From a virus (lineage: Duplodnaviria; Heunggongvirae; Uroviricota; Caudoviricetes): DNA of 28,083 nucleotides. Both the position numbers and the translations under genes were made by a program. Every line of letters starts with the position of its first letter. Position 1 is the first letter of the stretch. The notes below the pieces were generated by a model that had not been told where the DNA came from, did not search any database, and worked only from the letters and a program-made list of their open reading frames with translations. Below, one piece after another: positions 21,707 to 27,445 of this stretch. The stretch lies in the IMG/VR virus record IMGVR_UViG_2802429242_000010, positions 1-28,083 of that record; one strand, written 5' to 3'.

Positions 21707-22057
21707 TCACTTAAGTCGTTCACGGGCCGTCTTCGCCTTATGACACGGCCAGCACAGACTCTGCAGATTACAGTCGGCATCAGTGCCGCCATGCGCTTTA
21801 GGGATGATGTGGTCAACGGTTTTCGCCTCACGCACCACACCAGCACGCAGACATAACTGACACAGGCCTTTGTCACGCTTCAGGACACCCGCGCGGATAC
21901 TGTCCCACTTCGAACCATAACCGCGCTGATGACGGGATTGTCCTGGCTTGTATTGCTTCCAGCCCTCGCTTTTGTGGCTTTCGCAATAGCCTGACGGATC
22001 AGTCGTGGTATTGCGGCAACCGCGAAAACGGCAGGCTTTTGGGGTTCGTGGTGGCAT
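21707..22057 (-). CDS. HNH endonuclease (terminase-associated)
   Basis: 116 aa; N-terminal Cys cluster (CRFRGC...C) and HNH core (DHIIPKAHGGTDADCNLQSLCWPCHKAK). RBS GAGGGG 5 nt upstream. Confidence 0.85.
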   Translation of the reverse strand: MPPRTPKACRFRGCRNTTTDPSGYCESHKSEGWKQYKPGQSRHQRGYGSKWDSIRAGVLKRDKGLCQLCLRAGVVREAKTVDHIIPKAHGGTDADCNLQSLCWPCHKAKTARERLK

Positions 22058-24107: not shown

Positions 24108-24141
24108 CCAGAAACGACAAAACCCGCTCGACGGCGGGTTT
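24108..24141 (-). terminator. Candidate intrinsic terminator (minus strand) about 140 nt upstream of the holin gene, possibly a tR'-like element
   Basis: Minus-strand AAACCCGC-cgucga-GCGGGUUU followed by a U-rich tract (UGUCGUUUC). Confidence 0.4.
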
Positions 24142-24186
24142 AAGCTGTGTGGCGAAGTAACCACTCTTAACAGATTACAATGTTTT

Positions 24187-24215
24187 TTGCGTACGCGTTA
24201 GCATTTTCGTAAAAT
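24187..24215 (+). promoter_or_regulatory. Candidate sigma-70 promoter for the ATPase-methyltransferase cassette
   Basis: TTGCGT (-35), 17-nt spacer, TAAAAT (-10), about 30 nt upstream of the ATG at 24247. Confidence 0.35.
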
Positions 24216-24246: not shown

Positions 24247-26037
24247 ATGAGCACAGAATTAAAACTAAAGAAAATTATGGCATCGTCTAAAATTGAGCCA
24301 TTTATTAGACATATTCGTTTTCCTTTTTTTAAAAACCTTGCAGAGGGTAGCAAGATTGATTTTGAGTATCCAATTACAGCATTAGTTGGTCAAAACGGGA
24401 CCAATAAAAGTTCTGTTTTAAGAGCCCTATTCGGTTCTCCAAACAACTATTCTCTGGGTAGCTTATGGTTTTCTACAGATGTAGATGAGATTAAAGATGG
24501 TGGTCGTTCTAGATTTATTTATGGATATTATGACAAAGCTACTGATTCAATTGTTGAAGTAATTAAAACTCGAATCTCTAAAGAAAATGATCCTGATTAC
24601 TGGGAACCATCCAGACCATTAAAATCCGACAACATGGCTCCAATGCCTAGTACAAAAATCTCAACCAATCAACTAAGGACTAGGTGGAAAGCTATTGACA
24701 AAAATGTAATATATTTAGATTTCAGAGCAACTATCAGTGCATTTGATAAGTTCTTTTATCACTCTGATTTTCATACATACCCTAAGAAAGATTATCTTAG
24801 AAAACGCAGTCAGATGCTAAAAGACATTATAGATAACGATCTTAAAAAATATCAACCTCATAAAGGAAAAAAAGACAAGCTATTTGTTAACACTTTATTA
24901 GAAAAAAGTAAGGTAGAGGCAATCAGCAAGATTTTAGGTCGCAAATACACAAGCATCCGCCTTATTGAACATAGCTTATTCACTAATGACAAAGCTCCCA
25001 CAATTATTCTTCAATCAGAAAACTTAAAATATTCTGAAGCTTTCGCAGGCAGTGGGGAATTTGCTGTATCTATATTAGTGCATAAACTAATGGATAGCCC
25101 TGATGCATCTTTAATTCTGCTAGATGAACCTGAAGTATCACTTCACCCTTCTGCTCAATGTCAATTGATGGAATTTTTATCAGAACAAGCACTTAAAAAG
25201 AAACATCAAATTGTCATATCCACACATTCATCAACAATAGTAAAAGACTTGCCTAAAAATGCCATAAAATTATTCTGTCTGAATGATAAAGTAGGAAAGG
25301 TTGATGTTCTTCAAAATGTCAGCCCAGAAGAATCTTTCTTTATTCTTGGTGAACGCATTGATAAAAGAACCGTTATTGTAGAAGATCGGTTAGCGAAGAG
25401 GTTTGTAGAAAAGGCGCTTAAAGCGGGTGGTGAAGCATTATTAAACTCCTTCGAAGTAAAACATGTTCCTGGAGGAGCGGGAAGTATTCTTCAAACTTTG
25501 GCTGTGCCTTTATGTGTTGCCAATGTTAAAAACGTTATTTTCTTATTAGATGGTGACCAATCGAGAACTGATGATTATCCAACTTCTGATTCCATACCAG
25601 AAAATCAAAACACAAACCTTCAAAACATCATAAAAGAAATAACCAATCAAGATATAAAATTTAGTTGTGATGGTTCTAATGGCTCATCAAATAACAATCA
25701 AAAATACAAAATGCAAAGAAATTTTATCGATTTCATCCACGATAAAATTGCTTTTCTTCCTGTTTATACTCCTGAAGCATTTCTTATTGAGAATGTTCAT
25801 GGTGATTATAAAGAATATAAAGATCAAATCCCCAAAAACATTCAAGATGCTAAAGAAATCACCAAAGAACTTTGTAAGTTAGACACAGGGTTGGAGAACG
25901 TTACCAGTGACGATATCTTTGAAACACAAATCAGAATTCTTAATAAAATACCAAATAATCATGAAGTGTTAACAAAAACTCGAGAGTTGCTGCAAATCTT
26001 TTTAGATAATGATACTATCAGACCAAGAGTGAGGTAG
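24247..26037 (+). CDS. P-loop ATPase with Toprim-like C-terminal region (OLD / PARIS-like architecture); candidate ATP-dependent nuclease
   Basis: 596 aa. N-terminal Walker A (ALVGQNGTNKSSVL), ABC-like region (FAGSGEFA), Walker B (LILLDEPEVSLHP) and H-loop-like VISTHS. C-terminal half has Toprim-like acidic motifs (TVIVEDRLAKRF and NVIFLLDGDQ). Strongly AT-rich. Domain calls are by-eye motif recognition. Confidence 0.6.
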   Translation: MSTELKLKKIMASSKIEPFIRHIRFPFFKNLAEGSKIDFEYPITALVGQNGTNKSSVLRALFGSPNNYSLGSLWFSTDVDEIKDGGRSRFIYGYYDKATDSIVEVIKTRISKENDPDYWEPSRPLKSDNMAPMPSTKISTNQLRTRWKAIDKNVIYLDFRATISAFDKFFYHSDFHTYPKKDYLRKRSQMLKDIIDNDLKKYQPHKGKKDKLFVNTLLEKSKVEAISKILGRKYTSIRLIEHSLFTNDKAPTIILQSENLKYSEAFAGSGEFAVSILVHKLMDSPDASLILLDEPEVSLHPSAQCQLMEFLSEQALKKKHQIVISTHSSTIVKDLPKNAIKLFCLNDKVGKVDVLQNVSPEESFFILGERIDKRTVIVEDRLAKRFVEKALKAGGEALLNSFEVKHVPGGAGSILQTLAVPLCVANVKNVIFLLDGDQSRTDDYPTSDSIPENQNTNLQNIIKEITNQDIKFSCDGSNGSSNNNQKYKMQRNFIDFIHDKIAFLPVYTPEAFLIENVHGDYKEYKDQIPKNIQDAKEITKELCKLDTGLENVTSDDIFETQIRILNKIPNNHEVLTKTRELLQIFLDNDTIRPRVR

Positions 26038-26040
26038 ATA

Positions 26041-27081
26041 ATGGCTAAAAAGATACACGTTTACGATTTCTTTTCCGGCTGCGGCGGAACCAGTGTAGGC
26101 CTAAAAGCGGTGGGAATGGAAATTATTTTCGGTTTAGATATTGATCTAGACTCCGCTAACACCTTTAAAATGAATAATCCATTTGCACATTTTATCAATG
26201 GTGATATCAAAGATACACACGTTGAGGAAATTAAGCATCTGGTTTGTGCGTCAACACAAAGCAAAGCTCTAACCCTTTTTTGTGGTTGTGCTCCATGTCA
26301 ACCATTCTCGAAACAAAATAAAATACGGAACGAGGATGATCCGAGAAAAGATCTGCTTACTGAGTTTGCACGGTTTGTCTCTTATTATACGCCAGACTTT
26401 GTACTGGTAGAGAATGTACCAGGAATCCAAAATGTCGATATTAACAATGGAAATTTCCAGAAATTTCTTGAGGTTTTAGCACATCATCACTACAACGTTG
26501 ATTTTGGTGTGATTCCTGCGTTGTGGTTCGGGGTTCCTCAAACACGTGAACGTTTTGTTTTACTGGCGTCAAAACACACGAATATTAAGCTTCCATCACA
26601 AACTCATGATGGATTAAAAACTCCGTATGCAACTGTCAGAGACTGGATCGGCGGATTACCTCCTATTGCTGCCGGTGAAACTCATAAAGATGTTATGGAT
26701 CATACAGCAGCCAAACTATCTGATCTAAATATTAAACGTATTAAAGCGACTCCTGAGGGAAAAGGTAGAGAATCTTGGCCTGAAGAACTTATACTAAAAT
26801 GCCATAAAAAATATAAAGGGCATACTGATGTTTATGGACGGCTTTCTTGGGACAAACCAGCAAGTGGATTAACAACTAGATGTATAAGCTATTCGAATGG
26901 ACGTTTCGGACATCCAGAGCAAGATAGGGCTATTTCTGTTAGAGAGGCTGCGTTATTACAGACTTTCCCATTAGACTATTCCTTCACAGGCTCTTTAGTC
27001 TCGAAAGCCAAACAGATAGGGAATGCAGTCCCTCCCAAGATGGCTGAAGCTCTTGGAAGGGCTATCATCGCATCACTTTAA
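26041..27081 (+). CDS. DNA (cytosine-5)-methyltransferase
   Basis: 346 aa with canonical C5-MTase motifs in order: I FSGCGG, IV PCQPFS (catalytic Cys), VI ENV, VIII QTRERF, X GNAVPP. Starts 3 nt after the ATPase stop (operon-like). Confidence 0.9.
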   Translation: MAKKIHVYDFFSGCGGTSVGLKAVGMEIIFGLDIDLDSANTFKMNNPFAHFINGDIKDTHVEEIKHLVCASTQSKALTLFCGCAPCQPFSKQNKIRNEDDPRKDLLTEFARFVSYYTPDFVLVENVPGIQNVDINNGNFQKFLEVLAHHHYNVDFGVIPALWFGVPQTRERFVLLASKHTNIKLPSQTHDGLKTPYATVRDWIGGLPPIAAGETHKDVMDHTAAKLSDLNIKRIKATPEGKGRESWPEELILKCHKKYKGHTDVYGRLSWDKPASGLTTRCISYSNGRFGHPEQDRAISVREAALLQTFPLDYSFTGSLVSKAKQIGNAVPPKMAEALGRAIIASL

Positions 27082-27091
27082 AAGCGGAGCC

Positions 27092-27445
27092 CTAGAGGGC
27101 TTCGCCTAACAATAATAGAATACCTGATATAAACCCTATAGCTCCCTGAAGCTCTTTTCTAATTGCTCCATCAGAGCATTTTCTTTTCTTAGCAATGGTG
27201 CGTAATGAGATACCAATCACAAAATGAGCAATGATCAGCTCATATTCTTCTGGTTTATACTTCCGCAGGCGGGCGACACAGCCATCAATCATGATGCCTT
27301 CATCATCATCGCACTGAATCCGGGACTTTCTGCCATGAGGTAAAAGCCCCTTGAAGCCAGCGGCTACCGGTTGCCAATCCACACCACTGTTCTCTGCCGC
27401 AGCCCACGCTCCCCAACGGTCTAATACTTCATACATATCACACAT
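27092..27445 (-). CDS. Q: Late-gene antitermination protein Q (phage 82 / DLP12 QuuD-like family)
   Basis: About 117 aa from ATG with RBS GGAG upstream; similar to the QuuD-type Q protein I recall (..LERWGAWAA...AAGFKGL...CDDD..I..GC.ARL...). Located upstream of the lysis cassette on the same strand. Confidence 0.75.
   Translation of the reverse strand: MCDMYEVLDRWGAWAAAENSGVDWQPVAAGFKGLLPHGRKSRIQCDDDEGIMIDGCVARLRKYKPEEYELIIAHFVIGISLRTIAKKRKCSDGAIRKELQGAIGFISGILLLLGEAL

Follow-up and report, generated by a model that had tools for sequence, protein, structure and literature searches.

What would an ATP-dependent nuclease do with a cytosine methyltransferase as its constant neighbour? The question is raised by two genes in a prophage-derived stretch of 28,083 nucleotides (positions 1 to 28,083 of the IMG/VR virus record IMGVR_UViG_2802429242_000010, Caudoviricetes), which was analysed at its full length and is called the window below. 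The two genes form a 2.8 kb cassette in the interval between the Q antiterminator and the holin: gene 1 is predicted to encode an ABC ATPase fused to a Toprim nuclease of the OLD type, and gene 2 a C5 cytosine DNA methyltransferase (MTase). We find that the linkage between gene 1 and the MTase is obligate, reciprocal, and ancient, and we hypothesize that the pair may act as a defence resembling restriction-modification (R-M). The parts of the cassette are the following.

24247-26037, plus strand: gene 1, an open reading frame (ORF) of 596 amino acids (aa), predicted OLD-type ABC-ATPase/Toprim nuclease
24247-25281, plus strand: predicted N-terminal ABC-type (OLD/SMC/Rad50-like) ATPase head of gene 1, aa 1-345
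25282-26037, plus strand: predicted C-terminal OLD-type Toprim plus helical domain of gene 1, aa 346-596
26031-26043, plus strand: junction of genes 1 and 2 (GAGG Shine-Dalgarno, TAG, 3 nucleotides (nt), ATG), read from the sequence
26041-27081, plus strand: gene 2, an ORF of 346 aa, predicted C5 cytosine DNA methyltransferase

The two proteins have the accessions WP_231256136 and WP_047645442. The initial annotation of this DNA described two plus-strand genes 3 nt apart, and on re-reading the ORFs both coordinates and spacing are exact; the ORF lengths and the profile matches of both genes are far beyond chance. At the junction the letters are GTGAGG TAG ATA ATG, with the TAG stop of gene 1 at 26035-26037 and the GAGG Shine-Dalgarno (26031-26034) within the end of gene 1, 6 nt ahead of the ATG of gene 2. 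With the Shine-Dalgarno inside gene 1 and a gap of 3 nt, the two genes are translationally coupled. The cassette is also far more AT-rich than the structural genes, as had been judged by eye: between 24001 and 27000 the fraction of guanine plus cytosine (GC) is 0.31-0.41, while the structural genes have 0.50-0.61.

The exact cassette occurs in 8 of 5426 complete E. coli genomes, and about 10 further E. coli genomes carry a second allele in the same slot (protein identity ~60% for gene 1 and 66% for the MTase), always with its own MTase. A scan of species-representative genomes led to 80 fetched loci, 77 of them with a gene-1 ORF, which span Proteobacteria, Actinobacteria, Bacteroidota, Firmicutes, Planctomycetes, Patescibacteria, and others. 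A C5 MTase lies within 6 kb in 69 of these 77 loci and directly adjacent in 47, on the same strand in 45 of those; two of the exceptions are explained, one by an MTase off the contig end that was found by tblastn (L007), the other by an IS21 insertion (L075). In viral contigs the MTase is present at all 58 loci with a gene-1 ORF and adjacent at 55. After de-replication at 90% identity, 99 gene-1 clusters remain: the MTase is adjacent in 75, within 6 kb in 21, and absent in 3. With 96 of 99 clusters accompanied by a C5 MTase, the idea, entertained in the initial annotation, that homologs of gene 1 might never be linked to one fails decisively.

The linkage holds equally when read from the other gene. 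Among viral MTase homologs of at least 54% identity, gene 1 stands immediately upstream in 39 of 40, the exception beginning at a contig edge; among those of 53% identity or less, it stands upstream in none of 40. Over 101 adjacent pairs the median gap is 2 nt, and neither enzyme has lost any catalytic residue in 47 of 47 adjacent pairs. Most gene-1 loci are bare dyads with gene 1 as the sole nuclease, and a Pfam census of the other operon members revealed no recurrent third partner, helicase, or retron. Since the linkage is reciprocal and near-universal across phyla, the pairing is not coincidental, which favours an R-M-like pair, or a coupled abortive-infection variant of it, over a chance neighbour.

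What kind of enzyme is gene 1? Its product is predicted to be an OLD-type ABC ATPase fused to a Toprim nuclease, the Toprim part resting on structure prediction, PADLOC profiles, and motifs. Over aa ~20-340 it matches the Pfam families AAA_15 (1.5e-15) and AAA_21 (2.3e-13), as well as SMC_N, and its ATPase motifs are Walker A (G48-x2-G51-x2-K54-S55), Y262-x-E264-AFAGSGEF, Walker B (D293-E294), and an H-loop (H327). In a 22-sequence alignment the residues G48/G51/K54, D293-E294, and H327 are invariant, and so are E379-D380 (VEDR), G410, D435-G436-D437 (DGD), E510, and K536 in the C-terminal half; every motif that the initial annotation had named, in both proteins, falls in an invariant alignment column. 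E510 is found in 46 of 47 and K536 in 47 of 47 adjacent pairs, both in helices beyond the Toprim sheet. In BpOLD the catalytic set comprises the Toprim residues E400, E404, and D455xD457 together with E508 (metal B) and K562 of the helical domain (PMC6755086). The invariant residues of gene 1 are plausible counterparts of the published OLD set.

The predicted structure points in the same direction. The top Foldseek matches of full-length gene 1 are the OLD nuclease of T. scotoductus (TsOLD), Gabija GajA, and the OLD effector of retron Eco8, and a comparison with individual proteins gave these figures:

TsOLD: 8.1
C-terminal region of BpOLD: 7.3
AriB: 6.5
Retron Ec67: 6.2
T7 primase: 5.7
A small Toprim protein (2i5r): 5.7

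HEC-04 comes first among the PADLOC models (1.3e-36, aa 209-470), followed by the retron type I-B ATPase-Toprim (7e-25, aa 42-484); these and the Foldseek matches uphold the OLD/GajA-like architecture proposed from the motifs. Weaker PADLOC matches (PtuA, AriA, GajA, Old) are confined to the ATPase region, the Old model covering only aa 286-334 and the GajA models only aa 287-356. Profile searches bear out the expected domain layout in part: AAA_15/AAA_21 and HEC-04 are matched, and an OLD-type Toprim and DUF4435 go unmatched in Pfam. Beyond aa ~340 there is no Pfam match, Toprim, OLD, and DUF4435 included, even when the C-terminal half is searched alone at E up to 10, and a profile of the C-terminal domain has no match among PDB sequences; the Toprim assignment is therefore one of fold and motif. 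The gene-1 family comprises 395 clusters at 50% identity (E up to 1e-30). Its best 150 representatives measure 339-699 aa (mostly ~580-650), and no nuclease-MTase fusion protein is found among them.

Gene 2 is less demanding. It is recognizable as a complete Dnmt1-like C5 cytosine DNA methyltransferase, in keeping with the initial annotation: PF00145 matches over the full length (3.3e-59), TIGR00675 and the PADLOC model MTase_II (6.8e-91) match too, and the full catalytic motif set is present (I, FxGxG; IV, P85-C86-Q87; VI, E124-N125-V126; VIII, Q167xR169xR171; X, G327-N328). A target recognition domain (TRD) lies between motifs VIII and IX and is conserved within its clade in the clade alignment. 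The best PDB matches are DNMT1 catalytic domains (2e-34). A Dnmt2-like tRNA methylase was considered and ruled out: gene 2 is matched best by DNMT1 and bacterial DNA MTases, and its motif IX/TRD region is of the DNMT1 type.

Have the two genes evolved as a unit? Distance matrices of gene 1 and of the MTase correlate with a Spearman rho of 0.26-0.47, much as regions of gene 1 do when compared with each other (0.37-0.54), and clades in the gene-1 tree track the MTase type; no region of gene 1 stood out as co-varying specifically with the TRD. Broken modules are asymmetric: two have a frameshifted nuclease and an intact MTase, one has both genes broken, and none has an intact nuclease beside a broken adjacent MTase.

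Partnerships have nonetheless shifted over time. The order MTase - RE_HpaII - gene 1 is found in seven loci of Bacteroidota and Firmicutes (L021, L027, L028, L029, L050, L063, and L069), and this association is polyphyletic in the gene-1 tree, having arisen at least twice, so the nuclease has changed MTase partners. The unit of M.HpaII-like MTase, RE_HpaII, and gene 1 is also a natural test case, because its methylated motif (CCGG) is known. Another operon type consists of MTase, a GHKL ATPase with Hypoth_Ymh, and gene 1; and in six Bacteroidota operons (L030, L034, L036, L074, L080, and L075) the MTase is followed by a ~990-aa GHKL/HEF_HK/HATPase_c protein, Response_reg_2, and the gene-1 homolog, with a Vsr gene after the homolog in L074 and the IS21 just upstream of the nuclease gene in L075. 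Sister MTases that lack gene 1 (L185-L225, viral contigs) are 41-53% identical to gene 2, and their neighbours include GHKL/MORC-like ATPases (8 of 36), GmrSD_N proteins (6), and HEPN RNases (5 + 2); non-canonical effectors of several kinds seem to gather around this superclade of Dnmt1-like MTases. An attempt to infer the recognition motif from the sister MTases failed, as their partners are not restriction endonucleases (REases) of known specificity.

We hypothesize, giving this reading about an even chance, that the cassette is a two-gene, ATP-dependent, R-M-like defence carried as prophage cargo. The C5 MTase would mark the DNA of lysogen and prophage at its own recognition motif and so protect it; the ABC head of the OLD-type nuclease would use ATP binding or hydrolysis to engage what is presumably DNA; and the two-metal Toprim site would nick or degrade unmarked DNA, for example that of a superinfecting phage. 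In the lysogen, a promoter at the edge of the slot would probably drive both genes, against the direction of the late genes, and the two would be translated as a coupled pair. In the version that we find most attractive, the MTase itself may supply target recognition or licensing, a Type III-like logic with unrelated parts, since the nuclease has no evident sequence-reading domain and swaps MTase families. Extended in this way, the cassette could tentatively be seen as a new R-M type, a possibility we think rather doubtful, in which the C5 MTase both marks self and serves as recognition or licensing subunit of an OLD-type nuclease, and gene 1 would represent a fifth, MTase-linked class of OLD proteins. 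Such a role for the MTase, if true, would explain how the nuclease swaps between unrelated C5-MTase families.

The R-M-like reading draws support from the linkage and its reciprocity, the lack of any other partner, the intact residues, co-inheritance, coupling, and the asymmetry of decay, as well as from the dependence of HEC-04 on its Walker A and Toprim site, from its apparent toxicity, and from the defence candidates that the same slot holds elsewhere (PDC-M53A/B in SfII). Several observations weigh against it. Gene 1 has no identified methyl-reading or sequence-recognition domain, and it differs neither in length nor in fold from an ordinary OLD nuclease; PARIS, Gabija, retron Eco8, and HEC-04/IbfA act without methylation, as trigger sensors or abortive-infection effectors. 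The nuclease gene comes first, there is no controller protein, and a promoter scan found no significant internal MTase promoter, so that there is no obvious way to delay restriction in a new lysogen. Switching among MTase families is awkward if the nuclease has a fixed sequence specificity of its own. Because some relatives adjoin a complete HpaII R-M system or GHKL operons, gene 1 is not always the sole nuclease, and given such neighbours a simple R-M pair is not the sole viable reading; the sister MTases, moreover, have HEPN RNases, GmrSD_N, and GHKL proteins as their partners and no classical REases.

The main rival explanation, which we regard as possible, if on balance unlikely, is that gene 1 is an abortive-infection or guard effector of the PARIS/PrrC kind coupled to a methylase. 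Here the OLD-ABC head would sense an anti-restriction or anti-methylation factor, the depletion of S-adenosylmethionine, or another phage protein, and would set the Toprim nuclease free to attack nucleic acid of the cell or the phage; the MTase would be a guarded or licensing partner, or an antitoxin-like restraint, and not a simple self-marker. A change of MTase family is easy under this model, and characterised systems of the OLD-ABC/Toprim type offer precedents, with PARIS responding to Ocr, retron Eco8 to SSB, and IbfA acting by abortive infection. HEC-04 is found inside the methylase-containing Hma system, and OLD-ABC/Toprim modules are widely embedded in BREX, where they are read as backup suicidal effectors (PMC12839542). 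Some gene-1 relatives adjoin a complete HpaII R-M system, as a backup would, and the pairing of sister MTases with HEPN RNases fits as well. Yet in most loci, the cassette included, a primary restriction enzyme for which gene 1 could be the backup is missing; the MTases form a clade reserved for gene 1 that retains its full catalytic set, which would be needless in a mere scaffold; and beyond the ordinary OLD architecture no sensor domain is seen.

Two further explanations do without a joint defence of this kind. The genes might merely travel together, a stand-alone HEC-04-like nuclease beside an orphan phage MTase that shields the phage genome from host restriction: HEC-04/IbfA do function as single genes, orphan MTases are frequent in phages (this prophage type also carries an N6-adenine MTase), and defence genes cluster in hotspots. 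We consider this quite improbable in view of the reciprocal, near-exclusive linkage across phyla, in chromosomal and prophage settings alike, with its sharp MTase identity threshold; of the translational coupling and co-diversification of the genes; and of the finding that 50,697 phage and 72,556 plasmid records hold no solitary close homolog of gene 1. Least probable of all, to the point of being barely credible, is a DNA-repair accessory of C5 methylases, an analogue of Vsr that nicks the T:G mismatches arising from 5-methylcytosine deamination. The family resembles Vsr in its linkage to C5 MTases irrespective of the other genes around it, some of its operons contain GHKL (MutL-like) ATPases, and MutS is also an ABC ATPase; against this, genuine Vsr genes (PF03852, E 1e-24 to 1e-34) share an operon with a gene-1 homolog in five loci (L026, L043, L044, L049, and L074), three of them of the GHKL type, and gene 1 as a substitute for Vsr is rejected on this ground. 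Its nearest relatives, besides, are phage-defence effectors, and the cassette is mobile prophage cargo.

How would a cassette of this kind be housed and expressed in the prophage? The elements around it, and those at the left end of the window, are listed here.

27448-27092, minus strand: Q antiterminator (PF06530, Pfam)
27084-27105, minus strand: inverted repeat over the Q stop codon, then TTTT on the Q strand (sequence read)
24187-24215, plus strand: promoter-like TTGCGT-17 nt-TAAAAT facing the cassette, -35 in the core, -10 cargo-proximal
24119-24211, no strand assigned: conserved core of ~95 nt, left cassette edge at the cargo/lysis boundary (Megablast and five-way alignment)
24120-24141, minus (late) strand: terminator-like hairpin plus T-run (terminator scan; kept in 5 of 5 aligned phages)
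23967-23641, minus strand: lambda-family holin (PF05106, Pfam)
542-2765: dusA (PF01207) on the minus strand, then a tyrosine integrase on the plus strand

The cassette had been assigned to the Q-S cargo slot of lambdoid phages, where Shiga toxin (stx) genes reside. The interval from Q to the holin stands, both genes being confirmed by Pfam; the equation with the stx slot is not exact. The cassette occupies an antisense sub-slot between Q and the core, and in Stx2a_1447 the stx genes are sense-oriented and found past the core; the slot for antisense cargo and the classical stx slot are thus neighbours and not one and the same. Megablast finds the core segment in ~2500 E. coli records and 48 phage records, and an alignment of five lambdoid phages shows it to be invariant whatever the cargo; the slot is present in ~46% of complete E. 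coli genomes. The core has no Rfam family, and its folding z-score (-0.13) is not unusual. On its other occupants, SfII carries an antisense pair (genes 50/49, L004 2754-4368) that is a full-length match to the PADLOC candidate PDC-M53A/B, and phage 434 carries nmpC. Stx2a_1447 carries an antisense pair as well (genes 24/23, L005 3130-4693; 343 + 179 aa), which has no PADLOC match, and its larger gene, the one covered by the Pfam scan, has no Pfam match; this pair may be an undescribed defence candidate.

TTGCGT-17-TAnnAT, with six different -10 hexamers, recurs in every allele and cargo variant scanned, the core of phage 434 being divergent and its promoter-like site aligned by eye only. It is likely a shared promoter for the cargo of the slot; a generic promoter scan did not pick up the TTGCGT-17-TAAAAT site. 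On the late strand, the hairpin at 24141-24120 precedes the holin start by 153 nt and is a candidate for a terminator subject to antitermination by Q, and the inverted repeat at 27084-27105 may likewise terminate transcription. Only 10 nt separate the stop codons of the MTase and of Q (with a similarly tight convergence in SfII and Stx2a_1447), so pR' cannot lie between Q and the cargo. By elimination, pR'/qut of this phage group is probably situated within the core or close to it, on the far side of the cargo; no convincing sigma-70 promoter (pR') was found on the late strand of the core.

A minus-strand gene for a DUF968 protein (Pfam) flanks the cassette on the Q side. On the holin side are the endolysin and Rz, the endolysin ORF being without a Pfam match and its homolog in L001 annotated as glycoside hydrolase family 24. 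At the left end of the window dusA directly adjoins the tyrosine integrase, which indicates a prophage integrated beside dusA. Two features elsewhere in the window deserve mention. A 173-aa ORF of low GC (0.35) with a lipoprotein-like signal peptide (9430-9951, minus strand) separates the tape-measure gene from the next tail gene; it is without a match in Pfam and could be a moron, for example a superinfection-exclusion lipoprotein. An HNH endonuclease gene (21707-22057, minus strand) adjoins the gene for a small terminase of the P27 family, the usual arrangement in HK97-like packaging modules.

Does the pair correspond to anything already named? The initial annotation knew no such system, and we agree: PADLOC-DB v2, Pfam, and NCBIfam hold no dedicated model for an OLD/Toprim plus C5-MTase pair (gene 1 has no NCBIfam model at all), and full-text literature searches directed at such a module yielded no description of one, although an earlier mention in comparative-genomic surveys of ABC ATPases is possible. 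INPHARED (50,697 phage records) and PLSDB (72,556 plasmid records) contain no close homolog of gene 1 beyond partial matches of ~29%. OLD-family nucleases are widespread and what they recognize in vivo is poorly understood, the characterised ones sensing phage proteins or nucleotides; a branch dedicated to an MTase would couple an OLD nuclease directly to epigenetic self-marking. The outcome would be either a new R-M architecture, built from an ABC ATPase and Toprim, or an abortive-infection nuclease under a novel form of control. The slot, for its part, is a lambdoid cargo-exchange hotspot with a likely shared outward-facing promoter, and could be mined for further defence genes.

Among R-M systems, those of Type II have known REase folds (PD-(D/E)xK, HNH, GIY-YIG, PLD) and no need of a nucleoside triphosphate (NTP), whereas the cassette combines a predicted Toprim domain with an intact ABC ATPase. 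A Type II nuclease also cleaves at or close to the site of its MTase and is blocked by methylation there; for the cassette, the evidence bearing on this is genetic linkage, co-inheritance, and the asymmetry of decay. Type III systems (Mod + Res) and LlaJI/BsuMI resemble it in placing a methyltransferase and an NTP-dependent nuclease in one operon, and may share its logic of marking self and perhaps of leaving DNA recognition to the MTase; their parts are unrelated to those of the cassette, being a superfamily 2 helicase or McrB GTPase and PD-(D/E)xK in place of ABC and Toprim, and the MTase of the cassette is a Dnmt1-like C5 enzyme. In PrrC-EcoprrI, the paradigm of the guard idea, a Type I R-M locus harbours an anticodon nuclease with an ABC ATPase. 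That nuclease, PrrC, cuts RNA and is held by the whole Type I enzyme, while gene 1 and its relatives mostly have a C5 MTase alone as partner and are nucleases of the Toprim kind.

The defence systems with ABC-ATPase and Toprim parts differ from the cassette chiefly in their partners. Gabija joins GajA to the helicase GajB, and no helicase is present in the window or recurrent in related loci; PARIS consists of the ABC ATPase AriA and a DUF4435-type Toprim protein, AriB, with no modification gene, and the cassette does not fit it. More generally, the partners in Gabija, PARIS, and retron I-B/Eco8 are a helicase, a split AriB, or a reverse transcriptase with multicopy single-stranded DNA, never a methyltransferase, and these systems sense nucleotides or phage proteins, not a DNA mark. 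HEC-04/IbfA (ibfA of an IncI1 plasmid), the nearest of the validated relatives, is, like gene 1, a single-polypeptide ABC ATPase-TOPRIM, and is active against phages. HEC-04 was discovered embedded in the methylase-containing Hma system; its phage defence needs Walker A and the Toprim metal site, and it was grown without isopropyl thiogalactoside (IPTG) owing to apparent toxicity (Payne et al. 2024 preprint, bioRxiv 10.1101/2024.01.29.577857). The HEC-04 profile matches the gene-1 family partially, over positions ~155-386 of 494 at ~110-124 bits (124 for gene 1, with four other members alike), and E. coli plasmid ATPase-Toprim proteins are ~30% identical to gene 1 over ~190 aa. HEC-04/IbfA work alone, whereas the gene-1 family is, in genetic terms, obligately paired with a C5 MTase and has ~100 extra C-terminal residues; as judged from these profiles, gene 1 is a relative of HEC-04/IbfA and not a member.

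The OLD nucleases themselves (P2 Old, Class 1 TsOLD, Class 2 BpOLD) share with gene 1 an N-terminal ABC ATPase and a C-terminal Toprim/helical domain, are its top structural matches, and have counterparts in it of the Toprim Glu, Gly, and DxD and plausible ones of the helical-domain Glu and Lys. Identity is only ~13-17%, and sequence models miss the C-terminal domain of gene 1. Gene 1 thus has the architecture of an OLD protein (ATPase motifs; Toprim Glu, Gly, and DxD) and falls outside the sequence models of the family and the neighbourhoods of its classes: Class 1 has no partner, Class 2 a UvrD-like helicase, Class 3 a retron, and Class 4 GajB, while the neighbour of gene 1 is a C5 MTase.

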